Positions 11,538 to 49,215 of a stretch of DNA of 64,000 bases are shown here, one piece after another. Under the pieces are notes generated by a model. That model had not been told where the DNA came from, did not search any database, and was given only the letters and a program-made list of their open reading frames with translations. Origin of the DNA: an uncultured Verrucomicrobiota bacterium. GTDB taxonomy: Bacteria; Verrucomicrobiota; Kiritimatiellia; CAIKKV01; CAITUY01. Each line of letters begins with the position of its first letter. Position 1 is the first letter of the stretch. Both the position numbers and the translations under genes were made by a program. The stretch lies in the NCBI GenBank assembly GCA_964609375.1, contig CAZSSA010000001.1:7694-71693 (forward strand). Direction: 5' to 3'.

Positions 11538-11590
11538 GAATTCCCTCCCGCCCATATGGATTAATTACCTAACGCACGGAACATGCAGAT

Positions 11591-12385
11591 TTAATTCCAA
11601 TGCCCTTTTAACAAAGGCAACTGTGTCTTATGCCCCACCATGGCCAGGTACATACCACAGCCGGCATAGGTTGTCTGCAACGCCTTGAGATTCGCCATCG
11701 GATCGTAAGGCACATCTTCTGGGATTGTGTACCCCACACATTCGGAAAGAAGGTGAAGTTTCTTTGACATCCAGCACTCGACAAACACTGGTATTCCGTG
11801 CTTCAGAAGACCCATCACCCGCTCATCCTTTCCAAGTACCGGTTGCGTACAGATAAACTGTGCGCCCGCTTCGATCTTGCGATGAAGCTTGTCCACTTCG
11901 TGGTCCTGTGGCTCATAGGGATTAAAAGCCACTCCCAGAGTGAACACACCAGGATAGGTCTTGTGAATATAGGCCACCAGTTCAACAGCAGTCACGGCAT
12001 TACATGATAATCCAATCGCTTGAGGTTGAAGCCGGGGCAACCGCTCGTTGCCATCGCCAGAAACAACAAGAATGTCTTTCGCACCCAGTGCAGCACACGT
12101 ATCCAGAATCTTATGCAAGTCATCCTTTGTGTGAAAGGTGTTCAAGTGAACAGAAAGTTGCCCGGGTTTGACCTCCAGCCCAAGCTCAGGAATGATATCC
12201 GTCGCCTGAAAACTCAAATGCCCCATCGGATTATCCGTAATACAGGCAACATGCCCCCCCTCCATCACCTGATTAAACTTGATCGCAAACTTCTCAAGAT
12301 CACCTTCTAAATCTTCGGTGCTCTGTTTCGGGGTCACGACCTCAATGTGGTAAACTTTATTTTTAATATCGTCATGAATCGCCAT
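11591..12385 (-). CDS. metF: Methylenetetrahydrofolate reductase family protein (short, MetF-like)
   Basis: 264 aa. DNPMG, ILVVSGDG, GVAFNPYEP and AGAQFICTQPV resemble the MetF TIM-barrel. Clustered with fhs and folD. Confidence 0.65.
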   Translation of the reverse strand: MAIHDDIKNKVYHIEVVTPKQSTEDLEGDLEKFAIKFNQVMEGGHVACITDNPMGHLSFQATDIIPELGLEVKPGQLSVHLNTFHTKDDLHKILDTCAALGAKDILVVSGDGNERLPRLQPQAIGLSCNAVTAVELVAYIHKTYPGVFTLGVAFNPYEPQDHEVDKLHRKIEAGAQFICTQPVLGKDERVMGLLKHGIPVFVECWMSKKLHLLSECVGYTIPEDVPYDPMANLKALQTTYAGCGMYLAMVGHKTQLPLLKGHWN

Positions 12386-12416
12386 TGTTGATTCCTCACT
12401 ACTGTTGTTATCCGGC

Positions 12417-14193
12417 TTAGAATAAACCGCGAACTCTCCCTGTCTTTACATCAATATCGATGTTGGTAAAGGCCGGTTCTGATGCCATTCCCGGCATTAG
12501 CTTGATATCCCCCGCCACCGGCACAACAAACCCGGCACCCCTGTAAACCAAGATATCGCGAATCGGCAACGTCCACCCTTTTGGCCGTCCTTTGACATCA
12601 GGCTCGTGCGAAAGGCTCAGATGCGTTTTGACCATACAGGTCCCTAATGCCGCCGTAGCCGGCTCCGACTCAAACCGCTTCGCCTTTTCAAGCGCCACAT
12701 CGCTATACGTCACACCATCCGCCCCGTAGATCTCCTTCGCAATCCGCTCAATGCGAACACGAAGTGGCGTGTCAAGGTCATAGAGAAACTTGAAGTTGTT
12801 TTTTTCAGCCGCCGCCGCCACGACCGTCTCCGCCAATTCTCGGGCACCCTCCCCGCCTTTGAGCCAATGCTGCGAAAGTGCAGCATACGCCCCATTGGCT
12901 TCGGCAACTTTACGAACTAAAGCCACTTCATTGGGCGTGTCAGTATGAAACCCATTGATGCACACCACTGGCCGCACGCCGCTCTTCTTGACAATCTCGA
13001 TATGCGCCGCAAGATTCTCACATCCCTTCTCAAGAAGACCGAGATTCTCGCGCGTGTAAGCTTCATCAAGCTTTGCCCCGGGCTTCACCGCTGGACCGCC
13101 ACCATGCATCTTGAGGGCCCGAATCGTGGCTACAATAACAACGGCACTCGGCTTGAGTCCCGAAACGCGGCACTTCAAGTTCCAGAATTTCTCAAACCCA
13201 ATGTCAGCGGCAAAACCACTCTCAGTAACATGGTACTCCGCTAGACGCGTGCCAATTTCATCGGCAATGATGGAACTCTGACCAATGGCGATATTGGCAA
13301 ACGGTCCGGCATGCACGAAGATCGGCTGCCCTTCGATCGTCTGGAGCAAATTCGGATTGATCGCATCCACGAGCCACGCCGCCATGGCGCCATCTACCTT
13401 TAGATCCGCTGTGGTAATTTCGTTCCCCTCCTTGTCGGAAGCGACGACCATCTTCGCCAAGCGCTCCCTTAAATCGCGCAGATCCTTGGCCACGGCGAGA
13501 ATTGCCATCACCTCGCTGCCAACCGAAATCTGGAACCCAGACTCCATCTCAAAACCATCCATCTTTCCGCCGCGACCGATGATGATGTTTCGCAGACTCT
13601 GGGCGCACAAATCAATACACCACTTGATCGCCACTCGCTTGGGATCAACATTAAGTCGCCGAATCCCCGTTCGAGCCAGCCGGGCATCATCGTAGTTGCG
13701 CTCATGCTGCATCCTTGACGTCAATGCAACCATGGCTAAGTTATGGGCATTAGTAATGGAGTCAATATCCCCCGTCAGGCGAATCGAAAAGGGAGCCAGA
13801 GGAATGCATTGCGCCAGCCCACCCCCGGCAGCAGACCCCTTAATATTAAATGTTGGCCCACCGCTCGGCTGGCGGATGGCTCCGATAACCGTTTTGCCAA
13901 TCTTCCCAAGCCCCTGAACCAACCCTATCGTGGTGGTAGTCTTTCCCTCCCCAAGGGGCGTCGGCGTAATGGCTGTAACATCAATGTACTTCCCGCACGG
14001 AAACTGATGTATACGCTCCATGACCATGCGTTGGTCCACCTTCGCCAAGTTCCGGCCCATGGGAATCACTTCATCAGGCAATAAGCCCATGTTTGAAGCC
14101 AAGACCGAAATCGGCTTCATGAAAGGCTCCGCGGCCTCCGCAATCTGCCAATCCTTCATCCGTGTCGGGTCCAGAATTACTCTATTCGTCATG
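12417..14193 (-). CDS. fhs: Formate--tetrahydrofolate ligase
   Basis: [33 protein letters not shown] and the FTHFS family signature throughout. Start at MTNRVILDP with GGAAGGA Shine-Dalgarno. Confidence 0.9.
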
Positions 14194-14246
14194 ATTCCAT
14201 CCTTCCTGCTTTCGCACTCACGATCCTCGGCTCGTAAAACCAACCG

Positions 14247-15269
14247 CTATTCGACTCCCAAACGGCCTTCCCGGTGCGCCGTAATGTATTCCACCCCGTA
14301 AAGATCTTCTCCGGTTAACAACGCCTTCGCTAATGCAAACGCCTCGGTGGTTGTATCCACCCCGGCGAGAATCTTGCTGTTCATCTGAAGCGGGTCCAGT
14401 ATCCCACTGTCAGCCCCTGCTTCCACCGCGAGCCATGTGAACACCTGATTAATGAGTTTTCTGCCCGGCATGCCAAAGGAGACATTACTCAAGCCGCCGG
14501 TGATATGAATGTCAGGACCATACTGCTTTCGAATGGCCGCCACCGCATCGATAAACCCCTTGGCATTATTTGAGTCCGTGGCCACTGGAAAAACCAATGG
14601 ATCAATGTAGACATCTCCACCACGAATCCCTGCGGCCTCCAACGCTGGCATCAACCGCGCAATATTCACCAACCGCTGTTCTGTGTCCGATGGTAGATCC
14701 TTCTCTCCTGCCGCCGAGGCAATAACCACGGCCTTAAATTCAGCCGCAACTCGAATCGAATCTTGCCGCTCTAATGACACGGAGTTAACCATTGGACGCC
14801 CACGCCCCATATCGCAGGCTTCAAGACCAGCACGCAATATCTCAGGGTTGGATGAATCGATACTTAGCGGCAATCGGCTTTTCCCTTGAACCACTTTCGC
14901 CACCCACCGAATCCCCCGGCACCGCTCCTGAATATCCGTACTAAACTCATCAACATTAATATCAAGAAACGATGCATCCGACGCCTCTTGGCGTTGCGCC
15001 AAATAGGAAAGGTAATCCGCCGCCGCCGATTTGCCATTGGCATCACCATACAATCCTTGCCACACGGCGACAGCACAATGCTTAACCTTGCCATTTTCCC
15101 AATCGGCTGTTTTAAGAAACGCATCGGGAATTGGCAAATACCGTGTATCCCCCTTCCCTCCATACACAATGGCGAACCCTCCCCCATCCGCAGGCTTGAC
15201 GAAATTTCCGCCAACTTTGTAAACACGGGTGCAATGGATATTCTCGCCAACAACAATCAGTTTTTTCAT
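14247..15269 (-). CDS. Pterin-binding domain protein (MetH folate-binding domain / MtrH/AcsE-like methyl-THF methyltransferase) with a ~60-aa insertion after the GENIH motif
   Basis: VVGENIH, LSIDSSNPE, NSVSLE, DPLVFP and GGLSNVSFGMPGR match the Pterin_bind barrel. AAGGGAG Shine-Dalgarno 8 nt upstream of the ATG. Confidence 0.75.
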   Translation of the reverse strand: MKKLIVVGENIHCTRVYKVGGNFVKPADGGGFAIVYGGKGDTRYLPIPDAFLKTADWENGKVKHCAVAVWQGLYGDANGKSAAADYLSYLAQRQEASDASFLDINVDEFSTDIQERCRGIRWVAKVVQGKSRLPLSIDSSNPEILRAGLEACDMGRGRPMVNSVSLERQDSIRVAAEFKAVVIASAAGEKDLPSDTEQRLVNIARLMPALEAAGIRGGDVYIDPLVFPVATDSNNAKGFIDAVAAIRKQYGPDIHITGGLSNVSFGMPGRKLINQVFTWLAVEAGADSGILDPLQMNSKILAGVDTTTEAFALAKALLTGEDLYGVEYITAHREGRLGVE

Positions 15270-15293
15270 GAACGAATCTCCCTTAAGCCAATA

Positions 15294-16202
15294 TTACCGA
15301 TTTTTACTCTTAACATTTTGAAGCCGCTTCAACACAGATCCAATAGCCCGTATATGTTCAGGGGTAGTGCCGCAGCAACCACCTATAATCGATGCGCCTG
15401 CTTTAACCATGGCCGGAATCCACCCCGCTGACACTTCCGGGACTTCCGGAAACACATCCATTCCGTCTATATTCTTCGGCAGTCCGGCATTCGCCTGAAC
15501 CATGATCGGCACATCAGGAACGGCAACCCGTATCTCCCTCACTATCGCCACCATCTGCTCCATTCCCTGTCCACAGTTTGCACCCACAATATGCGCACCG
15601 GCGTCCACTGCCGCTCGCGCCGCGTCAGCCGGTGTCACGCCCATCATCGTATGGTAACCTCCGTCCGCCGTGTGCTGAAAGGTGAACGTGCATAGGATCT
15701 CTAGAGAGCCTTGCTCCTTTGCCGCCTTGACAGCCAAACAAGCCTCGTCAATTGCAGACATGGTCTCTATGCATACCGCATCCGCCCCTCCAGCCGCCAG
15801 GGCATCTATCTGCTCTTGAAACGCTTCATAAATCTCTTCCTCTGTGACATCGCCCATTAGAAGCATCTTACCTGTCGGTCCCACGGACGCAATAACATGC
15901 CGGTCGACGCCAGCCGCTTCACGGGAGATTGCCGCTGCAGCCCTGTTCAATTCCACCACCCGTCCCTGCAATCCAAAATACTCCAACTTGAACCGAGTCC
16001 CTCCGAAACTGTTTGTTTCAATCATGTCGCATCCTGCTTGAACATAGCGACACGCCACGTCCAATACTTCATCACGATGCTCAACGCACCACAATTCTGG
16101 ACACTCCCCTGGCTTGAGTCCCTTCTTCTGCAAAAAAGTCCCCCATGCTCCATCAGATAAAAGTAACTCGCCGGCTCTTACTCGCTGGGCTATCGGTTTC
16201 AC
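15294..16202 (-). CDS. Homocysteine S-methyltransferase domain protein (MetH Hcy-binding domain / MmuM-like, zinc thiol methyltransferase)
   Basis: LLLSDGAWGTFL, IETNSFG and IIGGCCGTTPEHIRAI are hallmark motifs. Start set to the GTG at 16202, which has a perfect AAGGAGG 7 nt upstream; the track ORF extends to a TTG at 16256. Confidence 0.8.
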   Translation of the reverse strand: MKPIAQRVRAGELLLSDGAWGTFLQKKGLKPGECPELWCVEHRDEVLDVACRYVQAGCDMIETNSFGGTRFKLEYFGLQGRVVELNRAAAAISREAAGVDRHVIASVGPTGKMLLMGDVTEEEIYEAFQEQIDALAAGGADAVCIETMSAIDEACLAVKAAKEQGSLEILCTFTFQHTADGGYHTMMGVTPADAARAAVDAGAHIVGANCGQGMEQMVAIVREIRVAVPDVPIMVQANAGLPKNIDGMDVFPEVPEVSAGWIPAMVKAGASIIGGCCGTTPEHIRAIGSVLKRLQNVKSKNR

Positions 16203-16260
16203 ACGCCATCCTCCTTCACCGAATAAATATGGACATTCTGCCTGTTTATATTCCAAAATA

Positions 16261-16298: not shown

Positions 16299-17690
16299 GT
16301 GAAATCCGCCTCTCAAAACAATAAGATTTCAGCTGTTCTTGATAATATCGGCAGAACCTCCGGACAAGGCGCTGTTTATCACGGGCTACATGATCAGACA
16401 ATGTTGCTCAACAACAGAGTCTGCTCCTTTTGCGTCCATGCCCTCAACCACGCGGTGTCAGCCCCCCTATGCCGTTACTCATGCTGCAATGCCACCGTTC
16501 ACGCCATGGCTTCTGGTGAACCCTATTTCTACCAATGCTGGGCAGGCCTCCTGTTTATAACGATCCCAGTTGCCCCCCAAAACCACTGTTCAGGGGGCAT
16601 AACCATGGGTGGATTTCACACCCCTGAGCAACATCAGGATATTCGCGATACAATCGAACAAGCACTTAAAACATGGCCGACAATTGATGCAAACCCTTTC
16701 CTTGCCAAACTGACCTCGCTCCATTCAATATCCACAAGCGCCCTGAGGGGCCTCGGTCACTTAGCCATGGAATCAACTTTTTCAAGTGGCTTAAACTCCA
16801 GCGGCTTCTTCCTCGCTCAAAATGAGAAGTACAACCAACAACGTCGCATCGCTGAAGCATTTGAAGACCTTCGCACACAGAATGTTTCCACATCGGACCT
16901 GTTGAGTGATGCCTACCAATTAGTCACCTTCCTGAGCCGCAATGATCGAACCAATGCCATGGAATTCGTTTCTCGCTATCTCGCCAAATTACTCATGGCC
17001 AGCAACTGGGATCTTATAAAATTGAAAGCCCACGTCCGGATATTATTAGCCGTAATCACAAGCCACGACATCTTAAATGGTATTCCTTGGGCGGTAGCCA
17101 CCAGTCGCGAGTTGCGACATATGGCAAGACTTGAACAGGCGTCAACCACCGAAGAAAGTTGCTATGAAGTATCTGAATGGATCCTTCAATATTTCCGAAA
17201 ACCTGAGCGCATTTTCATTGATGGCCGTCGTCTTGGCGATCGGATTCTGAGCTGGATGCAGGCGCATTATCAGGAAACAGTCACCCTGTCAGTCGCCTCA
17301 AAAGCAATCGGCGTGAGCACCTCAACCCTGGTCCATCGCCTACCCAGTGAAACGGGAAAAACATTCAAGCAGTTACTTCAGGAAATACGGATTACCGAGG
17401 CCAAGAAGCTTCTGGCAACCAGCGCTTTGGACATCAGCACTGTGGCAGAAAACTGCGGATTCTTTGACCAGAGTCACTTCACCCACGAGTTCAAACGAGC
17501 CATCAGCATCACGCCAGGACAATTCCGCAAGTTACTCGCTATTCCGGAAATTGCCCTGCGGACTCCTAATACCATCAGCCTTGACGAACCCTTCATCTCA
17601 ACACGCGCACTTGACAAAAAGACGTCGGGTCGGAAATCCACCTGTCGCCGTGATAAGCACCCCCGCCATTCCCGGAAAGCATCACCATAA
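16299..17690 (+). CDS. AraC-family transcriptional regulator with an N-terminal PocR-like sensor domain
   Basis: The C-terminal region has the AraC helix-turn-helix (VSTSTLVHRL...ENCGFFDQSHFTHEFKRAISITPGQFRK). The N-terminus has a Cys/His-rich PocR-like segment (FCVHALNH...CRYSCCNATVH...YFYQCWAGLL). Start uncertain: GTG at 16299 or ATG at 16401. Confidence 0.75.
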   Translation: MKSASQNNKISAVLDNIGRTSGQGAVYHGLHDQTMLLNNRVCSFCVHALNHAVSAPLCRYSCCNATVHAMASGEPYFYQCWAGLLFITIPVAPQNHCSGGITMGGFHTPEQHQDIRDTIEQALKTWPTIDANPFLAKLTSLHSISTSALRGLGHLAMESTFSSGLNSSGFFLAQNEKYNQQRRIAEAFEDLRTQNVSTSDLLSDAYQLVTFLSRNDRTNAMEFVSRYLAKLLMASNWDLIKLKAHVRILLAVITSHDILNGIPWAVATSRELRHMARLEQASTTEESCYEVSEWILQYFRKPERIFIDGRRLGDRILSWMQAHYQETVTLSVASKAIGVSTSTLVHRLPSETGKTFKQLLQEIRITEAKKLLATSALDISTVAENCGFFDQSHFTHEFKRAISITPGQFRKLLAIPEIALRTPNTISLDEPFISTRALDKKTSGRKSTCRRDKHPRHSRKASP

Positions 17691-24457: not shown

Positions 24458-24973
24458 TTAACCACGGGACGCCATGATGGCTTCTCGTGAACGTAACTGC
24501 TCCAAGGCATTTACTGTAGCTTTCACTACATTAACCTTGTTCCCACTGCCAAGAGACTTAGCCAAAATGTCGTGCACACCGGCCAATTCAAGAACCGCAC
24601 GCATTCCCCCGCCAGCAATAACTCCTGTTCCAGCTGATGCCGGTTTCAACAGTACGTACCCTCCATCACACTGCCCCATCACCTGATGGGGAATAGTACG
24701 ATCCTTCAAGGTCACCTGGAACATGTTTCGCCTGGCAATATCTCCACCTTTGCGAATTGCATCCGCGACTTCATTGGCTTTGCCAAACCCATATCCGACA
24801 AGGCCCTGACGATTGCCAACCACTACAATTGCGCTGAAACTGAAACGGCGGCCACCTTTGACCACCTTCGCACAGCGATTGACAAACACAACGCGCTCCT
24901 CGACATCCGAAGACGACGCCGACCCACCTTCAACCACTGTTCCTACTTTTGTCACTGCAGTCTGCCCTTTCAT
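24458..24973 (-). CDS. rpsE: 30S ribosomal protein S5
   Basis: [24 protein letters not shown] is the S5 signature. Confidence 0.9.
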
Positions 24974-24984
24974 ATCCTGCGGGC

Positions 24985-25338
24985 TTAAAACTTAAACCCA
25001 GCTTCACGTACCGCATCGGCAATCGCCTTAACCCGCCCGTGATACTTGAATCCACTCCGGTCAAAGACGATATCCTGAATGCCAATCTGTTTAGCCAACT
25101 CCGCCACACGTTGTCCGACCTGTTTGGCACCGTCAATATTCTTATGCCCAGAACCACCACTTCCAGACGAAGAGACAGCCACAAGTGTCCTTGCCGCCTC
25201 ATCGTCTACCAACTGTGCATAGATGTGCTTGTTCGAAATCATCACGCTCAATCTCGGCCGTGTCGCATTGCCGCTTAGAGATTTACGAACACGCGCATGC
25301 CGCCGCTGCCGACCAATTTTCCTATCAACTGTCTTCAT
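24985..25338 (-). CDS. rplR: 50S ribosomal protein L18
   Basis: [20 protein letters not shown] matches L18. Confidence 0.9.
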
Positions 25339-25341
25339 AGG

Positions 25342-25875
25342 TTAGGCCACCGTCTTCCCGGCCTTACGCCGTACATGTTCACCTTTGTATCGAATTCCTT
25401 TACCCTTATATGGCTCAGGCGGGTAATAGGAGCGCATCCGCGCCGCCACATCCCCAACCTGCTGCTTATCCGCCCCACTGACGGTTATCACGCTCTCCTT
25501 AACGGCCAGCGCTATCCCTTTTGGAGCCACAAATTCTACCGGGTTTGAATACCCGATCGTCATCGTTATTTTGCTGCCCTGCACAGCTGCACGGAAACCA
25601 ACCCCCTGCAATTCGAGATTGATCGAATACCCTTTCGATACTCCCTCAATCATGTTGGCGATAAGACTACGCCCTAATCCATGCCTGCTGCGACCAGTAG
25701 CCGAATCTTCGTCAACGGTGACTACAACAGACCCATCCTTCACCGCCGCCTCAATCAACTGTGGAAGCGTCATTTCAAGTTCACCTTTGGGTCCCTTGAC
25801 AGATACACGCCGACCAGCCACTTGAACGGTCACGCCCGCCGGAATAGCCACCGGTTTCTTGCCGATTCTTGACAT
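25342..25875 (-). CDS. rplF: 50S ribosomal protein L6
   Basis: MSRIGKKPVAIPAGVTVQV...; two L6 domains. Confidence 0.9.
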   Translation of the reverse strand: MSRIGKKPVAIPAGVTVQVAGRRVSVKGPKGELEMTLPQLIEAAVKDGSVVVTVDEDSATGRSRHGLGRSLIANMIEGVSKGYSINLELQGVGFRAAVQGSKITMTIGYSNPVEFVAPKGIALAVKESVITVSGADKQQVGDVAARMRSYYPPEPYKGKGIRYKGEHVRRKAGKTVA

Positions 25876-25955
25876 TCTCGTCCCCTGTTTAAAACCAATT
25901 TCTGGTCAAAGCCTCAAGGCCCCAACCATGCTCTTACCATACGGAAGACTTGCGC

Positions 25956-26354
25956 CTACCAAACTTGGCAAAGCAATTCTCCTCCAACACGCTTCTGACG
26001 TGCCTCCGTATCCGTCATAACGCCAGACGGCGTACTCAAAATCGCCACCCCCATTCCGCCCAGCACGCGAGGTATTTTATCAAACCCCACATACCGCCGC
26101 AACCCAGGGCGACTGATCCGTCTCAGTCCCGTTATCACAGGCTTCCGATCAGCGCCGTACTTCAGGGAAATCTGCAACGTCTTGTGGATCCCATCGCCCT
26201 CAATGGCAACATCCTTGACATAGCCTTCCCGCTTCAGTATGGCGGCAATTTCATTTTTTAGTATCGAATGATCAACCTCGGCTTTCTTCAATCCAGCCGA
26301 CGATGCATTCCGAATACGATTCAACATATCACTAATTGGATCCGACAAACTCAT
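25956..26354 (-). CDS. rpsH: 30S ribosomal protein S8
   Basis: DPISDMLNRIRNA and ILSTPSGVMTD match S8. Confidence 0.9.
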   Translation of the reverse strand: MSLSDPISDMLNRIRNASSAGLKKAEVDHSILKNEIAAILKREGYVKDVAIEGDGIHKTLQISLKYGADRKPVITGLRRISRPGLRRYVGFDKIPRVLGGMGVAILSTPSGVMTDTEARQKRVGGELLCQVW

Positions 26355-26366
26355 AGCCTCTCCATT

Positions 26367-26552
26367 TCACCAGCTCGCCTTAATCACTCCAGGAATCAGA
26401 CCATAAGAGGCCAACTCCCGGAAACATATGCGGCATACCTGGAACTTGCGCATGTAAGCATGTCGTCGTCCACAGCGCTTGCAGCGGTTATAGCGACGCG
26501 CACTAAACTTAGGCGTGCGGCTCGCCTTGACTTCCTGTGATTTCTTGGCCAA
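26367..26552 (-). CDS. rpsN: 30S ribosomal protein S14 type Z (61 aa, zinc-binding form); probable TTG start
   Basis: [61 protein letters not shown]. The track ORF is longer. The 61-aa form fits the gap to rplE. Confidence 0.8.
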
Positions 26553-26574
26553 ACGTGATCCCTCCTGACGTAAA

Positions 26575-27120
26575 TTACTTCTGCGACTTCGCGAACGGAA
26601 TACCCAGCAGCGTGAGCAACTCGCGCGCGCGCTTATCCGTCGCCGACGACGTGACAAGTGTCACGTTCATGCCTTGCACCTTCTTGCACTTATCCGGATC
26701 TATTTCCGGGAAAATTGTCTGCTCATGCAGACCAAATGTATAACTTCCGCGACCATCAAATCCTTTCGGATTCAAACCGCGAAAGTCATGAATGCGCGGG
26801 AGTGTAGCATGGATCAACCGCTCCATGAACTCATACATCATACTCCCTCGAAGTGTCACCTTCGCTCCCACCGGCATCCCCTGACGAAGCTTAAAGTTGG
26901 AAATGCTCTTTCTGGCCTTTGTAATAACCGGACGTTGCCCCGTGATGGCGGCCAAATCCTCCGACACCGCTTTGATTACGTCTTTTTCGACGGATGCGTT
27001 GAATCCCATGTTCACCGTTATTTTCAATAAACGGGGAACCTCCATCACATTCTTGCATCCCAGCGACTTCATCAGCGCCGGCACGATCTCACTCTTATAC
27101 TTTTCCTTAAGTCCAGTCAT
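26575..27120 (-). CDS. rplE: 50S ribosomal protein L5
   Basis: [17 protein letters not shown]... is the L5 signature. Confidence 0.9.
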
Positions 27121-27128
27121 AGACCACC

Positions 27129-27440
27129 TTACGATTCAAACGCCTGACCGCACCGTTTGCATTTACGAACACGTTTTCCACCCTCGACCACACGCTGGGT
27201 TCGCACAGCTTTCTTGCACTGTGCACAAAACAACATGAGATTCGCCAGTGCGATCGCCGCTTCCTTGCGAACAATCCCGCCCTGTTGATTATCCTGAGTC
27301 TTGCGCACATGCTTTGTTGCCAGGTTCACACCCTCAACAATCGCTCGGCCACTCGCGGTAATCACCTGCAGCACTTTACCCTGTTTGCCGCGCTCACGGC
27401 CCCTCAGAACAACAACAATATCATTACGTCGGATATTCAT
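27129..27440 (-). CDS. rplX: 50S ribosomal protein L24 with a C-terminal CxxC...CxxC ribbon
   Basis: KOW motif MNIRRNDIVVVLRGRERGKQGKV. C-terminus CAQCKK...CKRCG replaces the usual tail. Start at the conserved M. Confidence 0.85.
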   Translation of the reverse strand: MNIRRNDIVVVLRGRERGKQGKVLQVITASGRAIVEGVNLATKHVRKTQDNQQGGIVRKEAAIALANLMLFCAQCKKAVRTQRVVEGGKRVRKCKRCGQAFES

Positions 27441-27450
27441 AATCCCCTCA

Positions 27451-27816
27451 TTACAGCACCTCGGGTGCCAGCGAAACAATCTTCATATAATTCTTTTCCC
27501 GAAGTTCGCGTGCCACCGGCCCAAAAATACGAGTCCCCAGCGGATTTAACTTTTCATCCACCAACACTACCGCGTTGTTGTCAAACCTCAACGTAGACCC
27601 ATCCGGACGCCGGATGGGCTGCGCCGTCCTAACAATAATCGCCCGACACACCTGCCCCTTCTTGACAATGCCAGCCGGTTGGGCCTCTTTAATAGCGACA
27701 CGAATTACATCACCAATGTGTGCAAAGCGTTTGCGCTGCCCAATTAACCGGAAACACCGCGCCACTCTTGCACCCGTGTTATCCGCCACATCAAGATTTG
27801 TTTCTTCCTGAATCAT
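27451..27816 (-). CDS. rplN: 50S ribosomal protein L14
   Basis: [17 protein letters not shown]... matches L14. Confidence 0.9.
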
Positions 27817-27831
27817 GGTCTTTCTTCCGTG

Positions 27832-28107
27832 TTATTGGCCGCCGCCCGACTCTAGAATCTTGACCAAACGCCACCGCTTTAACTTACTGAGCGGCCTCGT
27901 CTCCGTAATCATGACCCTGTCACCAACTTTGGCCTCATTTTTTTCGTCATGCGCATGGAATTTATTATACTGCTTCATCTCCTTGCCGTACAAAGGATGA
28001 CGCTTCTTGAGTTCCACACGAACCACAATCGTCTTCTGCATCGCGGCGCTGACCACAACACCCGTGCGCTCTTTGCGAAGTCCGCGTTTATTTTCAGTGT
28101 CTGCCAT
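27832..28107 (-). CDS. rpsQ: 30S ribosomal protein S17
   Basis: [22 protein letters not shown]...HPLYGK is the S17 OB-fold. Confidence 0.85.
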
Positions 28108-28112
28108 AATGA

Positions 28113-28310
28113 TCAACCCCGTTGACTCTGGCGCTCTCTGGCAACCGTCTTGGCCCTGGCGATATCCCGCCGCAGACTCCGAATCCGAGACGGTTGTTCG
28201 ACCTGACTCGCCGACTTTCTAATGTTCAATACCCTCAGCTCCCGCTGCATATCTGAACATTGCTGTTCAATTTCATCTACACTCAATTCTCTCAATTTAG
28301 CGGCCTTCAT
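28113..28310 (-). CDS. rpmC: 50S ribosomal protein L29
   Basis: [17 protein letters not shown]...LRVLNIRK matches L29. Confidence 0.85.
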
Positions 28311-28341
28311 GGCTCACCGAATCCTTCTTTTTTCAGGCCCC

Positions 28342-28746
28342 TTAGCGGTGCCGCTTGACAAACATCGTCCGTATCGGCAGCTTTGCAGCTGCTAAGCGTA
28401 ACGCCTCACGCGCCATCACTTCTGGAATTCCATCCATCTCAAACAACATCGTTCCCGGACGCACAACGGCAACCCAAAACTCCGGCGCCCCTTTCCCTTT
28501 TCCTTGGCGGGTTTCCAACGGCTTCTTACTCACAGGCTTATCAGGGAATATCCTCATCCAGACCTTGCCACGCCGCTTCATATGGCGATTCATCGCCACG
28601 CGGCATGCCTCAATCTGAGTGGCTTTTACCCACGCCCGATCCAAAGCCTTCAAACCATATTCACCAAATGCCAGTGTATTCCCAGTCTGGGCATTTCCAC
28701 GACGGGAACCCCGCTGCACCATACGGTGCTTCACTCGTTTAGGCAT
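28342..28746 (-). CDS. rplP: 50S ribosomal protein L16
   Basis: [18 protein letters not shown] matches L16. Start at the conserved M. Confidence 0.9.
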
Positions 28747-29425
28747 AAGCGGCATTGGATCTTCCCCTTACTGCCTTTTCCGGCTCTTCCTTGTCCTTGC
28801 AAATCCAAACCTTGACGCCAATTTTTCCGGCCGTCGTATGGGCCTCGGCAAATCCGTAATCAATGTTGGCCCGAAGCGTATGCAAGGGAATCGTCCCCTC
28901 CTTATACTGCTCCGTTCTGGACAACTCAGCACCGCCCAATCGTCCCGCCACCTTGATACGAATACCCTTCACCCCGAGTTCCATCGCCATCTTAATGGCT
29001 CGCTTCATCGCACGACGAAATGAAACCCGTCTCTCCATCTGCACCGCAACACCTGCAGCAACTAACTGTGCATTGGTATCGGGGTTGCGTATCTCCCGAA
29101 TTTCAAGATAGATATCCTTGCCGCTCATTTTCGTAATCTCTTCACGAATACGGTCAAGGTCCTGCCCTTTGCGTCCAATAACTACACCAGGCCTGGCTGT
29201 ACATATTGTCACTCGAACGCGATTCGCATAGCGCTCAATGATAATATCCGCCACCGCGGCTGCTTCCAGTCGTTTTTTTACTAGATCGCGAATCTTGAGA
29301 TCTTCGATCAGCATTGGTCCACAGGTCTTCTTGTCAGCAAACCAGCGCGATTTCCACGCCTTGCTAACTGCAATCCGCAGCCCAATAGGATTGGTTTTCT
29401 GTCCCAAAACATCGCTCCTTTCCAC
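28739..29425 (-). CDS. rpsC: 30S ribosomal protein S3
   Basis: [23 protein letters not shown], plus KH and S3-C domains. Confidence 0.9.
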
Positions 29426-29444
29426 TCATCCGGCTCACAGCCGG

Positions 29445-29780
29445 TCACTTTTCATCAGTCAACACTACCGTAATATGGCTGGTCCGTTTCCGGATCCGGC
29501 TCACCATTCCTCGCGAACGCGCCCAAAACCTCTTCATCGCCGGTCCTTCACCGATCGTCGCTTGCTTGACCTTAAGGTCATCAGCCGAAAGTTTGGCGTT
29601 GTTTTCAGCATTAGCCACAGCCGAACGTAACGTCTTCTCCAACTGTTCAGCAACCTTACGCTCGCTAAATTGTGCAATCTTAAGCGCCTGCGCTACGGGC
29701 AAACCCTGTATCGCTCGCGCCATGTCCCTCGCTTTACGCGGTGACATTCGCACATACTTCGTTACTGCTTTAACTTCCAT
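29445..29780 (-). CDS. rplV: 50S ribosomal protein L22
   Basis: MEVKAVTKYVRMSPRKARDMARAIQG matches L22. Confidence 0.9.
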   Translation of the reverse strand: MEVKAVTKYVRMSPRKARDMARAIQGLPVAQALKIAQFSERKVAEQLEKTLRSAVANAENNAKLSADDLKVKQATIGEGPAMKRFWARSRGMVSRIRKRTSHITVVLTDEK

Positions 29781-29790
29781 TGCCTCGCTC

Positions 29791-30312
29791 CTACTCCTTC
29801 GAGCCGGTCGCCACTACCACCCGGTCTTTACTCCCGGGAAAATCCCGACCCGTCCGCTCAATCACTGCACCGGCGACCATCGGACGAACATCCACAATCC
29901 TGAGCCTGGCCACCACCCTCTCTCCCCGCATCACCGCCAACCGCATCCCCGGTCGCAACCCCTGCCGCCTCCCAGCGCTTAATACGGCCAGCCCCAGGTC
30001 CTCATTTACTTCCAAAATGCTGCATTCTTGTCCCTCGCGAATAACGTCACCCTCTGACGTTTTCGATCCCTGCCCCCCTGCTATCTCAACCGCATGCCTA
30101 TCCAACCTCGCCCGCAGCATGTCAACTTCAGCTCTGGCCACTGCCAGCGAATCCGCTAACCACTTCACCTGACTCTGCAACCTTGCCACTTCACCATCCG
30201 CTATCCCTGAAGCGGCAGAGACTCCACATACCATCGCCACTAGCCCCAATACCCACCCGGGACGCTTACCCTTACCCGGTCGGCAGCAACCGACTTGGCG
30301 ACTTATATTCAT
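29791..30312 (-). CDS. Hypothetical signal-anchored coiled-coil protein (173 aa) inserted between rpsS and rplV in the S10 operon
   Basis: ATG 5 nt after the rpsS stop and stop 10 nt before the rplV start; it exactly fills an otherwise unexplained 537-nt gap. Basic N-terminus, hydrophobic segment WVLGLVAMVCGVSAASG, then a coiled coil and a beta-rich C-terminal domain. Confidence 0.6.
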   Translation of the reverse strand: MNISRQVGCCRPGKGKRPGWVLGLVAMVCGVSAASGIADGEVARLQSQVKWLADSLAVARAEVDMLRARLDRHAVEIAGGQGSKTSEGDVIREGQECSILEVNEDLGLAVLSAGRRQGLRPGMRLAVMRGERVVARLRIVDVRPMVAGAVIERTGRDFPGSKDRVVVATGSKE

Positions 30313-30317
30313 CTGGT

Positions 30318-30602
30318 CTACTTCAACGCCACAGTCTTGTCCGTATGCACACCGTGCTTCCGGAATATACGAGTAGGCGCAAACTCACCAAGACGGTGCC
30401 CAACCATATGTTCCGAAATGTACACTGGCATGTGCTGCTTTCCATTATGAACCGCCACAGTATGCCCGACAAACTCGGGAATAATCATGGACCGGCGCGA
30501 CCAAGTCTTGATCACACGTTTCTCGCCGGAACGATTCATTTTTTCGACACGCTGTAACAGCTTGTCTTCAACGTACGGCCCCTTTTTGAGTGAACGGCCC
30601 AT
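30318..30602 (-). CDS. rpsS: 30S ribosomal protein S19
   Basis: [16 protein letters not shown]...[12 protein letters not shown] matches S19. Confidence 0.9.
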
Positions 30603-30605
30603 GGC

Positions 30606-31430
30606 TTATTTTCTCCGACTGATAATAAATTTACTCGACGACTTCCGCCCAGCTCTCGTCTTCTTGCCCTTGGTCAACTGCCCCCAGGGAGTTACCGGAT
30701 GCCCACCACCAGACGTGCGGCCTTCGCCACCTCCCATCGGATGATCCACCGGATTCATCGCTACACCTCGAACAGTAGGACGAATGCCAAGCCACCGCTT
30801 GCGTCCTGCCTTCCCAAGCTTCACACCATCATGCTCAGCATTACCAACTTGTCCAACCGTGGCCATGCAGTTCACGTTAATCAAACGGACTTCGCCGGAA
30901 GGCAATCTAACATTGGCAAAAGCCCCTTCACGCGACATGACCTGAGCCGATTGCCCAGCACTGCGCGCCAACTGCGCACCACCACCAACCGTCAACTCAA
31001 TATTGTGAACAACTAAACCAAGCGGTATCTTTCCAATCGGCAGGGCATTCCCGACAACAGGCTCCACATCCGGACCTGACATGACCATGGCTCCGACCTG
31101 CAAGCCAACGGGCGCAAGTATATACCGCTTCTCGCCGTCCTTATAATTCAACAATGCGATTCGCGCCGAACGATTGGGATCATACTCAATCGCCGCCACT
31201 TTAGCAGGAATTCCACTCTTGTCCCGCTTGAAATCTATCAGTCGGAACTGACGTCGGTGACCTCCACCACGATGCCGCACGGTAATGCGCCCAGCTGCGT
31301 TCCGACCGCCTGATTTACTCTTTACCTTTGTCAACGACCGTTCAGGCGTCGTCTTTGTAATTTCGTCAAACGCCGGCAACTGCGTGGAACGCAGGCTCGG
31401 TGTCGTCGGTTTGAATGTCTTCAAAGCCAT
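30606..31430 (-). CDS. rplB: 50S ribosomal protein L2
   Basis: 274 aa. L2 N- and C-domains ([22 protein letters not shown]). Confidence 0.95.
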
Positions 31431-31440
31431 ACCTTACTCC

Positions 31441-31722
31441 CTACTCAAGATCGATCTTATCGCCTTCCTTAAGCGTGACTATCGCCCGCTTCCAGTCCGG
31501 CTTCCTTCCGTAGTGAATCGTGCGCTCCCGGCGTTCCTTGCCAAGATAATTCATTGTGTGCACCTTCACCACTTTCACTTTAAAAAAATCTTCCACGGCC
31601 TTCTTGATCTCAAGCTTGTTCGCTGCCGGATCAACCTTGAACACATACTTGTTCAAGGCAGCCATCTGCGTTCCCTTTTCCGTGATATTAAGGCCTTTAA
31701 TCGCCGATAACGCGTTCTTCAT
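31441..31722 (-). CDS. rplW: 50S ribosomal protein L23
   Basis: YVFKVDPAANKLEIKKAVEDFFKVKV matches L23. Confidence 0.85.
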   Translation of the reverse strand: MKNALSAIKGLNITEKGTQMAALNKYVFKVDPAANKLEIKKAVEDFFKVKVVKVHTMNYLGKERRERTIHYGRKPDWKRAIVTLKEGDKIDLE

Positions 31723-32357
31723 TCTTTCCTCCCCGCCTTGCCCTCAAGTCGAGCACACAGCACATCCATCGCCGCTCGAGTGACCACGGCCACTGGGTAC
31801 CTTAACAGTTGATAGGTGCTGACCGATTGTGCCGTTGTCGCTTCAACACGCTTCAGGTTGCGAACCGCACAAATCAAATTCCTGTCCAACCGATCCACCA
31901 CGATCAATGCGCTTTCCAACCCCATCGACTTCATCACATTCATCGCCGCCTTCGTCTTTGGCTCAACCATTGTGAATTGGTCAACCACTCGAACCCGCCC
32001 TTCACGGACCAAATCACTCAACGCACGTCGAAACGCCAGTCGTGCCACTTTCAAAGGAACCTTTTTTTCATATGACCGTGGATGCGGACCATGCGCCACA
32101 CCACCACCGCGCCACACAGGTGACTGCTTATAGCCGGCTCGTGCCTGCCCCGTACCCTTTTGGCGCCACGGCTTCTTGCCACTACCATTAACCGCCCCTT
32201 TTCCCAACGTCGAAGCGGTACCGGCACGCATTCCGGCCTGATGAGCAACCACCACGTCATGCACAGCCTGCTGGCCCTGCTTTGTCAACAACGCTTCCGG
32301 GAAATCATAGTCCCCGAGAGTTGCGCCCTTCATGTCATAGACGGACACCTTACTCAT
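31719..32357 (-). CDS. rplD: 50S ribosomal protein L4
   Basis: QKGTGQARAGYKQSPVWRGGGVAHGP matches L4. Confidence 0.9.
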   Translation of the reverse strand: MSKVSVYDMKGATLGDYDFPEALLTKQGQQAVHDVVVAHQAGMRAGTASTLGKGAVNGSGKKPWRQKGTGQARAGYKQSPVWRGGGVAHGPHPRSYEKKVPLKVARLAFRRALSDLVREGRVRVVDQFTMVEPKTKAAMNVMKSMGLESALIVVDRLDRNLICAVRNLKRVEATTAQSVSTYQLLRYPVAVVTRAAMDVLCARLEGKAGRKE

Positions 32358-33001
32358 TTCGCCTGCCCCGCCTTCTTCAATGCTTTACGAACAACAACCA
32401 TCGCGCCTGCAGGCCCCGGAACGGCACCGCATACCAACAATAGATTCTCCGAGGCGCGCAACTGCACAACTTTCAGATTCTGCGTTGTCGCCCTCACTTG
32501 TCCCATATGACCAGGCATCCTCTTCCCCTTGTGAACCCGACCCGGATAGGAGCGGCAACCAATCGATCCGATTCGCCGCTTGGAATGACCACCATGGGTC
32601 ATGGGACCACCGCGCATCCCATGACGCCGCACAACTCCCTGAAAGCCACGCCCCTTGGTAATGCCCATGATGTCCACATAGGAGACACCTTCCAGTACCG
32701 CAGCCGTCACAGCATCTCCTGCCTTTAGAGACTCGGAAGTGTCTATGCGAAACTCGTGCAGATACTGCTGGGCCACCCCACCAAAACCCTTAACTTCTCC
32801 AGCTTCCGGCTTGTTGGCGCGTCCCGCCTTCTTCGGCCCAAGTCCGATTTTCAAGGCGTCGTAACCGTCTTTAGCCTTGGTCTTGCGCTGCACGACAACG
32901 CACGGACCGACTTCTATTACCGTCACAGGAATCTGGCGTCCCTCGTCGCCAAATACCCGCGTCATACCTATTTTTTTTCCAAGTATCCCTTGCATGGCCA
33001 T
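32354..33001 (-). CDS. rplC: 50S ribosomal protein L3
   Basis: [13 protein letters not shown]...[13 protein letters not shown] matches L3. Confidence 0.9.
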
Positions 33002-33005
33002 CCAC

Positions 33006-33326
33006 TCAAATCTTGATCGTTATGTCCACACCCGCCGGCATGTTGAGCTTCTTCAACTCATCCACCGTCTTTGCCGTCGGCTCCACTATATCCAGCAACC
33101 GTTTATGGGTGCGGATCTCAAACTGCTCCATCGACTTCTTGTCGGCATGCACACTGCGGTTGACACTATAGCGCTCAACACGCGTCGGCATCGGAATCGG
33201 ACCGACAACCCTCGCCCCTGTCCGCTTCGCGGTCTCAACAATGTCAGACACCGATTGGTCTAACACACGATAATCAAAAGCCTTCAAACGTATTCGTATG
33301 CGTTGTTTTTCCATGGTTCCACTCAC
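33006..33326 (-). CDS. rpsJ: 30S ribosomal protein S10
   Basis: [31 protein letters not shown] matches S10. 4-nt overlap with fusA, so there is no S10 leader. Confidence 0.9.
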
Positions 33327-35458
33327 CGTTCCAGAAGTTGCTGCTGAATCGCCGCCGGCACGACGTCAAAACAGGCCGGTTCCATCGTATAGCTCGCCCG
33401 CCCCCGCGTAAGAGAGCGAATGGCCGTAGAATATCCAAATAGCTCTGCCAGCGGCAATTTTGCGTGAATAACCTGTACGGTCTCCCGGCTGATCATGTCA
33501 TGCACATGCCCTCTCCGCGCGCTAATGTCGTTCAACACATCACCGAGATGCTCCGCCGGTAGAATAATTTCAAGCGACATGATAGGCTCAAGTATTACGG
33601 GGGCGGCATCTTTGGCCGCGGCACGTAGGGCCATATTGCCAGCTGTCCTAAACGCCATCTCAGTTGATTCTTGATCGTGATAGCTACCACCTATTATTCG
33701 CACACGTACATCGACTAGCGAATAGTTCGCCACAACACCCGTAAGTAAACCATCCCGAATGCCGTCCTCAATACTGGCCTTGAATTCAGAAGGAATACGA
33801 CTCGAGGGAACGTCAAATTCTATCGTAGTCCCCTCGCCTCTTGGCGCAGGCTCCACTTCAATAACCACTTCAGCAAATTGCCGCTGCCCGCCAATATCCC
33901 GCTCAAACTTGTGGTCCCCACGCCCCTTCGTGGATACACTCTCACGATACGCCACCATTGGCCGTCCAGCGTTCGCCTGCACCTTATACTCACGGAACAT
34001 GCGATCCTTCAATATTTCCAAATGCAACTCGCCCATTCCACTCAGCAAGGTCTGCCCCGTATCACCATCAATCGAAATTACACATGTCGGATCTTCAGCA
34101 GCCATTGCTGCCAGCGCCTCAGTCAATTTATCCCGATCGGCCTGGGATTTAGGCTCAACAGCCATTGACATGACAGGCTCGGGAAAGCGGATACGCTCAA
34201 GTTCAACCGGTAGATTTTCCGCACACAGGGTATCTCCCGTTGTGGCCTGCTTAAGACCCACCACCGCACCAATCTCACCGGCATGGATCGTTTCAACTTC
34301 TTGCCGATCATCGGCGTGCAGAAGAACAAGCTTCATGACCCGCTCCCGCTTCCGCAGGCGGGGGTTAAAAACGTTTTGTCCCTTTTTCAGTTGCCCCGAG
34401 TAAACCCTCACAAAACCCATCCGCCCCATGTAGGGATCATTCATCACTTTAAACACCAATGCACTCAAAGGCGCAAAGTCATCAGTCTCGCGAGTAACCT
34501 TTTCGTGAGTCTTTGGATGCACACCGTCCACCGGCGGAATATCCACCGGGGAGGGCAGGTAATCAACAACAGCATCCAATAACTGCTGAACTCCCTTGTT
34601 CCTCAACGAGGAGCCCACAAGCACCGGTGTAATCTTTTGCGCCAGCGTTGCCCGACGCAAACTATCCTTTAAAACAGCAGCTGGAACATCGGGATTCTCC
34701 AAGTAAGCATTCAGCATTGCCTCATCACGTTCAGCAAGGCATTCAATCATCTCCGCCCGAGCTTTTTCAGCCTGAACACCAAATTCCGCAGGAATCGCCG
34801 AGGTCACCACTTTGGCGCCGAGAGACGTATCATCGTACGAAATCGCTTCCATCGTGACCAGATCCACAACCCCAACAAACCGATCCTCAGCCCCCATTGG
34901 AATCTGAACCGCAACTGGCGTCGCCAGAAGTTTTTCACGCATCTGCTTAATCACAGAATCGAAATCAGCTCCAATACGATCCATCTTATTCACAAAAGCC
35001 AACCGGGGAACATGATAACGATCCGCTTGGCGCCAAACCGTCTCAGACTGCGGCTGGACGCCTCCCACCCCGCAAAACACCACAACAGCACCATCCAGCA
35101 CCCTTAAGGACCGCTCTACCTCAACGGTAAAATCGACATGCCCAGGGGTATCAATGATATTGATCTGATGATCTTTCCAAAAACAGGTTGTAGCGGCGCT
35201 TGTGATGGTAATGCCACGCTCTTTCTCCTGCGGCATCCAATCCATCGTCGCCGTACCTTCATGCACTTCGCCCATTCGGTGAACACGACCAGCGTAGAAC
35301 AGAATACGCTCGGTGGTCGTTGTCTTGCCAGCGTCGATATGGGCGATGATGCCAATATTTCGCAGGCTGACTAAAGAACGAGATCGATCCGCCGCTTCAC
35401 GCGTACGGACTTCTCCCGCCGAATCACCTTTTCGGTTCTGCTCCAAAATCGTTTCCAT
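33323..35458 (-). CDS. fusA: Elongation factor G
   Basis: [20 protein letters not shown] plus the G', II, III, IV and V domains. Start set at METILEQ; the track ORF extends to 35518. Confidence 0.95.
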
Positions 35459-35521
35459 TGGCGTTAATATCATGGGCGGACTCCGTCGCGCATTCGCACA
35501 CCGGCGCCAGCCCAACACCTT

Positions 35522-47870: not shown

Positions 47871-49079
47871 TTACTCGATAATTTCAACAACCGTACCGGC
47901 GCCAACCGTGCGGCCACCTTCACGAATGGCGAAGCGCATCGACTTCTCCATGGCAATCGGCGCAATCAGCGTCACCGTCATCCCAATGTTATCGCCAGGC
48001 ATCACCATTTCCACGCCTTCCGGCAGCATGACGTCACCTGTAACATCCGTCGTCCGGAAATAGAATTGCGGACGGTACCCCTTGAAGAACGGAGTATGAC
48101 GCCCACCCTCTTCCTTGCTCAACACATACACTTCACACTTGAACTTCGTGTGCGGTGTAATCGATCCGGGCTTCGCCAACACCTGGCCGCGTTCCACGTC
48201 CTCTTTCTTCGTGCTGCGCAGCAACACGCCAACATTGTCTCCGGCGCGACCTTCGTCCAGCAACTTTCGGAACATCTCAACACCAGTAGCCGTCGTCTTA
48301 ACCGTCGGACGTAATCCAACAATCTCAACTTCCTCGCCAACCTTGATGATTCCACGCTCAATACGACCCGTAACCACCGTCCCTCGACCTTCAATCGAAA
48401 ACACGTCTTCCACGGACAACAGGAACGGCTTATCCGTCACACGCACGGGTTCCGGAATGTAGTTGTCCAGCGCATTCATCAATTCCTTGATGCTGTTGCA
48501 GCCCGGATCATCCGCCGTCTTGGCCTGAATCGCCGCCAACGCGCTCCCGCGTATGATCGGCGTATCGTCACCAGGATACTCATACTTGGAAAGCAACTCG
48601 CGAATCTCAAGCTCAACCAAGTCCAGCAGCTCGGGATCATCCACGGTGTCAACCTTGTTCAGGAACACAACAACCGAAGGAACACCCACCTGACGCGCCA
48701 GAAGAATGTGCTCGCGCGTCTGGGGCATCGGACCATCCGAAGCACTCACCACGAGAATCGCACCGTCCATCTGGGCCGCACCGGTAATCATGTTCTTCAC
48801 GTAGTCAGCATGCCCCGGGCAGTCAACGTGCGCATAATGACGCTTTTCGGAACTATACTCAACATGCGAGGTCGCAATGGTTAAAATCTTGGTCGGATCC
48901 CGACGCCCCTGCGATTCGGACGCCTTCGCCACTTCATCATATTTGACATAGGTGCTCATCCCGCGCAACGACTGCACGTATGTAATGGCTGCTGTCAAAG
49001 TGGTCTTACCATGATCAACATGCCCAATCGTACCCACGTTCACATGCGGCTTTGTTCGACTAAACTGTTCTTTTGCCAT
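47871..49079 (-). CDS. tuf: Elongation factor Tu
   Basis: [35 protein letters not shown] at 49079 verified; the track ORF has a spurious 35-aa extension. Confidence 0.95.
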
Positions 49080-49139
49080 GTTCGTACTCCTATTACTGCT
49101 TTCCTGTCTATACCTGCTGAACCTGACTACACGTTCACC

Positions 49140-49215
49140 TGGAGCCCATGAGCGGGATTGAACCGCTGACCTCGTCCTTACCAAGGACGTGCTCTACCAA
49201 CTGAGCTACATGGGC
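49140..49215 (-). tRNA. tRNA-Thr (anticodon GGU)
   Basis: GCCCATG-TA-GCTCAGTTGGTAGAGC...CTTGGTAAG...TTCAATC...CATGGGC-T-CCA on the minus strand. Confidence 0.85.

Follow-up and report, generated by a model that had tools for sequence, protein, structure and literature searches.

In bacterial S10 operons rpsS and rplV, encoding the ribosomal proteins S19 and L22, form one of the most stable gene pairs. In the cell envelope, the barrels of MreC, FlgT and TsaP either assemble side by side into rings or arrays or serve to dock periplasmic partners, and FtsB, FtsL and DivIC are bitopic proteins of about 100-125 amino acids without a beta-barrel. Here we analyzed a 64,000-nucleotide stretch of DNA (the window) on contig CAZSSA010000001.1 of an uncultured Verrucomicrobiota bacterium, in which an additional gene, termed gene X in the following, is placed between rpsS and rplV. 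Its product of 173 amino acids combines a predicted export signal with a coiled coil and a barrel of the MreC/FlgT/TsaP kind. The domain fold as such is known already, and so are non-ribosomal genes in ribosomal operons (secY, adk, map, rpoA). What is new is the signal-coil-barrel architecture, the position in the middle of the operon and the strict conservation at this position. Gene X is a rare but stable exception to a highly conserved gene order.

Gene X is the open reading frame (ORF) at 29791-30312 on the minus strand, stop codon included, as identified from the frame itself, its orthologues and a family profile. It starts with ATG, and its letters are those quoted in the original prediction, which had singled out this ORF from sequence alone. 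Upstream lies rpsS (30318-30602, minus strand; Pfam Ribosomal_S19, E 6.3e-38) and downstream rplV (29445-29780, minus strand; Pfam Ribosomal_L22, E 6.1e-36). Read directly from the sequence, the gap between the two ribosomal genes measures 537 nucleotides and is filled completely by gene X. At the 5' junction the rpsS stop codon TAG (30318-30320) is followed by the five nucleotides ACCAG (30313-30317, minus strand) and the gene X ATG (30310-30312); sequence and anti-Shine-Dalgarno energy reveal no good Shine-Dalgarno sequence before this start. At the 3' junction the gene X stop codon TAG (29791-29793) is followed by the ten nucleotides GAGCGAGGCA and the rplV ATG (29778-29780). The packing of 5, 10 and 537 nucleotides was hence described exactly in the original prediction, to which we add that the whole operon, including the ORF, lies on the minus strand. 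The S10 order around the insertion is otherwise unbroken (rpsJ-rplC-rplD-rplW-rplB-rpsS-X-rplV-rpsC-rplP and onward), and is part of a str-S10-spc-alpha ribosomal super-operon that extends along the minus strand of the window from EF-G to secY, adk, map and rpoA. A plus-strand ORF of 130 amino acids (29780-30172) overlaps gene X and is its shadow.

Several lines of evidence reveal that gene X encodes a protein. Comparison of the window ORF with eight orthologues gave ratios of non-synonymous to synonymous substitution rates (dN/dS, Nei-Gojobori) of 0.31-0.43, with dS values of up to 1.5, and frame and length were kept in all eight orthologous ORFs. Five homologues with 90-49% identity were recovered in a word-indexed search and three more in species-representative genomes. 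The GC content is around 0.59 across gene X and around 0.52 in its neighbors, since the product is rich in Ala, Arg and Gly. The choice of synonymous codons is native: with a log-likelihood ratio of +0.054 for ribosomal-protein-type usage, X lies inside the range of the ribosomal genes, compared with -0.37 for a subtilase gene in the same window. Homologues were not found among plasmids or phages, and together with the native codon usage this led us to reject a mobile-element origin. A regulatory RNA was rejected as well, because Rfam contains no RNA family that matches the rpsS-rplV gap and the gap evolves as coding sequence. We conclude that gene X is a real, conserved gene. The idea that it is a spurious, non-functional frame in an expanded spacer, or an assembly artefact, can draw on the absent annotation, as homologues are named only "hypothetical protein" in the sources. 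Against it stand the conservation of frame, length and domain structure over dS > 1, the occurrence of hundreds of homologues in independent assemblies and sources, and a confidently predicted fold, and we count this idea as refuted. The original prediction had regarded a spurious ORF as unlikely; indeed, the orthologous junctions carry an orthologous ORF rather than non-coding, divergent sequence.

Gene X is also not a one-off, idiosyncratic insert. When 1.84 billion cluster representatives (50% identity) were searched exhaustively with a HMMER profile, 856 matched at E <= 1e-3, of which 209 reached E <= 1e-10 and 14 reached E <= 1e-30; most of these proteins are 140-290 amino acids long. Word-indexed searches were less sensitive: a single sequence gave 5 matches, a 25-sequence profile gave 7 and was swamped by coiled-coil words, and a barrel-only profile gave short fragments only. 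Gene context was sampled in the window and 26 related loci, comprising about 22 distinct proteins and reaching members that are only about 25-35% identical to X (P0098, P0127, P0156, P0146, P0050 and P0072). The next gene was rplV at every sampled locus with a downstream contig, and the preceding gene was rpsS wherever the contig extends upstream, except for three loci (L011-L013) of the lineage carrying P0098. In this lineage (L011 6205-8229) the break in the S10 operon falls immediately before X: rpsS is replaced by a divergent HTH_17/PTS_EIIA_2 gene, and X heads an rplV-rpsC-rplP-...-secY unit. L22 of this lineage is longer (131 amino acids). The position of X directly 5' of rplV is thus invariant among the loci examined, making the insertion a clade-wide feature.

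Across the sampled loci the identity of the flanking proteins to those of the window falls to 51% for L22 and to 64% for S19, and the rpsS-X-rplV arrangement is therefore old. X itself evolves much faster than its ribosomal neighbors, as it is only 49% identical in one comparison in which S19 is 88% and L22 79% identical. All members examined share the signal, a coiled coil with the motif LAxARAExD and a single FlgT_C-like barrel, immediately 5' of rplV. We also found the same barrel in another architecture: P0149 (378 amino acids, partial) and an adjacent 398-amino-acid protein contain two barrel copies each, and their genes (L027 3-2358) lie outside ribosomal operons, beside a BNR_2 (sialidase-like repeat) gene. 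Hence, only the signal-coil-barrel family is confined to the operon, and the barrel domain occurs elsewhere as well. The multi-barrel paralogous architecture at this locus might hint at the binding partner of the barrel. These data are best explained if gene X has become fixed in the S10 operon and is inherited vertically there within a deep clade of the Verrucomicrobiota or the Planctomycetes-Verrucomicrobia-Chlamydiae (PVC) group.

The N-terminus of X (residues 1-36; 30205-30312, minus strand) was assigned as an export signal from its sequence and from the N-termini of the family. Residues 1-19 are basic (R5, R11, K14, K16, R17) and precede a hydrophobic core of 12 residues from W20 to V31 (WVLGLVAMVCGV). 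A c-region SAASG with AXA-type sites at residues 33-36 follows, and then the acidic sequence IADGE. This layout looks like that of a cleavable Sec signal with the N-terminus inside; the AlphaFold2 confidence is low over this region. Among 105 full-length members 104 have an uncharged hydrophobic run at the N-terminus, with a basic n-region before and an acidic stretch after it. Sorted by crude sequence rules rather than by a trained predictor, and thus heuristically, 68 of the 105 have short h-regions typical of cleavable signals, 12 carry a canonical lipobox, such as LLVAGGC|S (P0072), IIGLAGC|G or LLVVAC|A, and 24 have an uncharged run of at least 19 residues, including some clear anchors (P0098, P0109). 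The positive-inside N-termini, the acidic sequence that follows and the 12 lipoboxes place the coil and the barrel outside the cytoplasm. We infer that this location is the constant feature, while the mode of attachment would vary across the family. The original prediction had proposed a type-II bitopic topology, which does not hold as a family rule, given the 12-residue h-region and SAASG of X itself and relatives with a lipobox, a signal peptide or an anchor. The order proposed at the same time, in which a basic N-terminus and a hydrophobic export segment are followed by a coiled coil and then by a beta-rich C-terminal domain, was confirmed.

The remainder of the protein was modeled with AlphaFold2 using a 110-sequence alignment (mean predicted local distance difference test score, pLDDT, 80.9). 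Residues 38-79 (30076-30201, minus strand) form a single long helix in the model (pLDDT 94-98), and helix prediction and conservation together define this segment as the coiled coil. Its a/d heptad core has a regular 3-4 spacing (L45, V49, L52, L56, A59, V63, L66, L70), and the LAxARAExD stretch is the most conserved part of the helix (L45 82%, L52 88%, L56 93%, A57 90%, D64 95%). The following linker (residues 80-96; 30025-30075, minus strand) is variable, with a pLDDT of about 51 and low occupancy and conservation. In members of 250-290 amino acids a long spacer rich in Pro, Ala and Glu, 60-120 residues in length, is found between anchor and coil. Residues 97-167 (29812-30024, minus strand) are modeled as six strands of a FlgT_C/MreC/TsaP/ATPase-crown type barrel with pLDDT values of 92-97, and on the basis of this model the fold class of the barrel is established. 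The barrel is the best conserved part of the protein: G114 and R143 are invariant, G118, G122, V142, G148, P159 and D163 are conserved to at least 90%, and N103 (89%), R164 (88%), R138 and D141 are also highly conserved. A C-terminal [KR]-E is kept in the close clade, whereas the final E is conserved to only 27% family-wide; the close-clade pattern is probably due to the overlap of these codons with the rplV ribosome-binding site rather than to a constraint on the protein.

This overlap bears on the expression of gene X. Neither junction contains a terminator-like site on the coding (minus) strand, and promoter-like matches in the junctions rose no higher than expected from shuffled sequence. 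The Shine-Dalgarno region of rplV, delimited by sequence and by the rplV anti-Shine-Dalgarno duplex (29781-29799, minus strand), consists of the last two codons of X, AAG GAG (29794-29799), the stop codon TAG and the spacer GAGCGAGG, and is conserved throughout the close clade. That the 3' codons of X double as the ribosome-binding site of rplV offers a simple explanation for the retention of X beside rplV after an operon break. Elsewhere in the family the genes are packed even more tightly: at L025 the rpsS stop codon TGA overlaps the X start (TGATG), and the X stop and the rplV start share 11 nucleotides at L014 and L015. The calculated anti-Shine-Dalgarno duplex is -6.6 kcal/mol for rplV and -2.4 kcal/mol for X, compared with -6 to -10 kcal/mol for most ribosomal protein genes; values comparable to that of X were obtained for the non-ribosomal genes secY (-3.9 kcal/mol) and adk (-1.7 kcal/mol). 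Translation of X most likely occurs by reinitiation after rpsS, judging from the junction. That X is co-transcribed and translationally coupled with the operon is well supported, albeit indirectly. X would thus be co-regulated with the operon, but given its weak Shine-Dalgarno sequence an output equimolar with the ribosomal proteins is not implied. The coupling to ribosomal proteins put forward in the original prediction thus stands as likely co-transcription and translational coupling, but its stoichiometric version goes too far for a duplex of -2.4 kcal/mol. In the region 24458-33311 (minus strand) very weak anti-Shine-Dalgarno duplexes were seen not only for X, secY and adk, but also for rplC, rpsE and rplN, which suggests graded translational coupling along the polycistron.

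Pfam (2025) and NCBIfam (2026) gave no significant match for X, and no model of either database covers the family when 110 members are scanned, in agreement with the earlier statement that the protein cannot be assigned to a named family. The most recurrent sub-threshold Pfam match was FlgT_C (PF16538), found in 17 of the 110 members at E <= 0.1 with a best score of 26.5 bits against a cut-off of 27; others were generic coiled-coil families (TPR, Csm1_N, ZapB). Sequence profiles of the PDB gave non-significant matches to MreC (9dvb, ranked second, E 0.029) and TsaP (E 0.59). A Foldseek search in which the helix was also scored returned MreC first (9a5z_B, E 5e-4, 153 columns), followed by FlgT (8z5n, 3w1e) and further MreC chains, and an earlier, shallower AlphaFold2 model gave the same ranking. 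Identity with a published clade-specific protein was also considered: C. trachomatis CT421.2 is a conserved signature protein of PVC bacteria (Gupta et al., 2012; PMC3444138). With a length of only 53 to about 80 amino acids, CT421.2 is not the same protein as X, and this article mentions no link of CT421.2 to rpsS or rplV; we therefore rejected this candidate.

Another view would have the product of gene X associate with ribosomes, in the cytoplasm or tethered to the membrane, as a ribosomal protein specific to the lineage or as a factor in the assembly of L22 and the exit tunnel; its hydrophobic N-terminus would then have no role in export. For the linkage to rplV, however, the overlap with the ribosome-binding site is the simpler explanation, and FlgT, MreC and TsaP score above the translation barrels. 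The positive-inside N-termini with their acidic continuation, the 12 canonical lipoboxes and the divergence of X relative to S19 and L22 likewise speak against a ribosomal role, which we regard as very improbable. Membership in a ribosomal protein family was rejected outright, as no ribosomal Pfam or NCBIfam model matched, the protein carries an N-terminal export signal and it evolves fast; the product is non-ribosomal, as the original prediction had stated. That prediction had also compared the architecture to FtsB/DivIC or MreC. For FtsB/DivIC the likeness is restricted to a generic signal-plus-zipper part (E 0.01-0.03), MreC is the top structural match, and X is a member of neither. Specifically, NCBIfam FtsL_COG5462 matched X with 14.1 bits (cut-off 50, E 0.028) and Pfam DivIC (PF04977) matched 7 of the 110 members (best E 0.0075). 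These weak matches are what a divisome zipper of the FtsB/FtsL/DivIC type could rest on. However, they are far below threshold and stand amid generic coiled-coil families, the barrel of 70 residues is the best conserved part of the protein, and the membrane span is not obligatory, being often replaced by a cleavable signal or a lipobox (68 short h-regions, 12 lipoboxes). We rejected membership in this group on these grounds, and regard a divisome zipper function as very improbable.

Taken together, we propose with a probability of roughly 0.6 that X is an exported, oligomeric coiled-coil/barrel protein of the envelope, which serves as a scaffold or for docking in the manner of FlgT, MreC and TsaP and whose synthesis is slaved to the S10 operon and hence to the growth rate. 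In the mechanism that we infer, which covers export, oligomerization, the scaffold role, co-transcription and expression level, Sec would export X to the periplasm, the signal probably being cleaved in the window copy, while relatives would be anchored by lipid or by their N-terminus. The heptad helix of about 40 residues would drive homo-oligomerization. The single six-stranded barrel might then serve as a module for side-by-side packing into rings or arrays, or for partner docking, as in FlgT, TsaP, MreC and ATPase crowns, and may offer a conserved charged face (R138, D141, R143, D163, R164) to a partner. X would be transcribed on the S10 polycistron, translated at its 5' end by reinitiation after rpsS, and its 3' codons would supply or overlap the rplV ribosome-binding site. 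The supply of X would consequently follow ribosome synthesis and hence growth rate, like that of SecY from the spc operon. Several points weigh against this proposal. The Shine-Dalgarno match of gene X is among the weakest of the operon, and the output of the gene may be much below that of the ribosomal proteins. The signal classes are heuristic. All neighbors of gene X are ribosomal protein genes, so that no neighbor is functionally informative. Finally, the taxonomic range is read from the titles of only three metagenome-assembled genomes, two reading "uncultured Verrucomicrobiota bacterium" and one "PVC group bacterium".

The weak Shine-Dalgarno match is likewise important for the idea that X is a very abundant periplasmic tether or spacer, analogous to Lpp (Braun's lipoprotein). 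Here, the N-terminus would act as anchor, the coil would span the gap, the barrel would hold peptidoglycan or the outer membrane, and the place in the S10 operon would provide a ribosome-like copy number. The mid-operon place and the tight coupling indeed fit a high, growth-proportional output, lipobox and anchor forms are common, the heptad core is conserved, and the Pro/Ala/Glu-rich spacers of 60-120 residues in longer members are what one expects of a distance-setting element. On the contrary, most members, and probably the window copy too, look cleavable and without an anchor, the Shine-Dalgarno sequence argues against a very high output, and neither homology to Lpp nor a peptidoglycan-binding motif of the LysM or OmpA_C type was detected. 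We judge such a tether to be possible but doubtful, and prefer a scaffold or docking module.

Full-text searches of the literature did not turn up any account of a gene lying between rpsS and rplV. The retention of a gene for an exported protein between these two genes reveals strong selection for co-expression with ribosomal proteins, at least with rplV, and this retention spans hundreds of 50%-identity clusters, even after an operon break. Gene X is therefore a clean genomic marker for the clade, and the unannotated family deserves a Pfam/NCBIfam model. For the Verrucomicrobiota, whose envelope biology is poorly known, it is also a tractable candidate for an envelope factor coupled to growth rate, and it calls for caution in annotation and phylogenomic pipelines that assume rpsS-rplV contiguity. 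In a bolder scenario X would be an ancient synapomorphy uniting a large clade of the Verrucomicrobiota/PVC group: a protein that builds or spaces the envelope and is hard-wired into the core ribosomal operon, such that envelope growth is set by ribosome synthesis, and whose export as a nascent chain tethers the S10 mRNA and ribosomal protein production to the membrane. We consider this speculative and rather unlikely. If true, it would reveal a new coupling of translation capacity and envelope architecture in a group with unusual cell plans.

The window contains further features outside the S10 region. A subtilase of 1716 amino acids (Peptidase_S8; 51186-56336, plus strand) and an adjacent Fe-alcohol dehydrogenase (56556-57797, plus strand) are clearly atypical in composition and codon usage compared with the rest of the window, with GC contents at third codon positions (GC3) of 0.74 and 0.67 and codon log-likelihood ratios of -0.37 and -0.25, respectively, and may have been acquired horizontally. 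At 3433-7474 (minus strand) a ClpC-type AAA+ chaperone (Clp_N + AAA + AAA_2, 826 amino acids) is preceded by an McsB-like ATP:guanido phosphotransferase (353 amino acids) and an ORF of 163 amino acids; such an mcsA/mcsB-clpC-like arrangement is best known from Firmicutes. A contiguous one-carbon/folate cluster (9286-16256, minus strand) encodes AICARFT/IMPCHase, FolD (tetrahydrofolate dehydrogenase/cyclohydrolase), an MTHFR-like protein, formate-tetrahydrofolate ligase, a pterin-binding protein and a homocysteine S-methyltransferase domain protein, and is followed by a divergent PocR/AraC regulator (16299-17690, plus strand). An ORF of 488 amino acids (7742-9208, plus strand) had no Pfam match at E <= 1e-5. 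The listed starts of EF-Tu (47871-49184), EF-G (33323-35518) and rpsC (28739-29425), all on the minus strand, lie too far upstream, and translation probably begins further inside these frames: in its listed form the EF-Tu ORF extends into tRNA-Thr (49140-49215), the EF-G ORF has 731 amino acids compared with 710-711 in relatives, and for rpsC a GTG at 29425 or a TTG at 29407 are the options.

Among described systems MreC is closest in structure, and one may ask whether X is the true MreC orthologue of the clade, a one-barrel form moved to the S10 operon that would act in the elongasome by docking and activating a class B penicillin-binding protein and RodA. Fold and layout agree with this idea. 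However, MreC (PF04085; 2j5u, 2qf4, 6zlv, 7eft, 9a5z) has two tandem barrels, whereas X has a single one, is about half as long and ends at residue 173. PF04085 (gathering score 28 bits) did not match X at E <= 1 and was not among the 25 most frequent matches in the 110 members; the best score among scanned relatives, 22.5 bits, belongs to the multi-barrel protein P0149 outside the operon. In contrast to MreC, many members of the X family appear to be lipoproteins or to have cleavable signals, and while MreC genes are found in an mreB-mreC-mreD cluster, X was never found with mreB or mreD and sits at rplV in the window and the 26 loci. We rejected membership in the MreC family because of the missing PF04085 match, the single barrel and the lack of mreBCD context, and hold an orthologous function to be unlikely.

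FlgT, whose C-terminal domain (PF16538; 3w1e, 8z5n) resembles the barrel, is a flagellar three-domain protein of about 350-380 amino acids from the Vibrio H-ring and Vibrio-type motors. X lacks the FlgT_N and FlgT_M domains as well as a flagellar context, and has a coiled coil that is absent from FlgT. PF16538 gave no match to X itself, and with family scores below the cut-off, an architecture of one barrel plus coil only and the ribosomal operon context, membership in this family was rejected too. TsaP, the secretin-associated protein of type IV pili (3jc8, 6ve2), possesses a LysM domain and no coiled coil, whereas X is without LysM and without pilus context. Pfam LysM and OmpA_C matches were absent from X and all 110 members, and TsaP membership was rejected for the missing LysM. 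Regarding the genomic setting, the original prediction had called it unusual for an envelope protein to be coupled stoichiometrically to ribosome synthesis, yet secY in the spc operon of the same window provides a precedent for an envelope gene embedded in a ribosomal operon. Like X, the genes secY, adk, map, infA and rpoA are non-ribosomal genes stably embedded in ribosomal operons (spc and alpha) and tied to growth rate, and secY encodes a membrane protein. They are located at operon ends and are nearly universal, whereas gene X is placed mid-way in the S10 operon, flanked on either side by a ribosomal protein gene, and is restricted to one clade.

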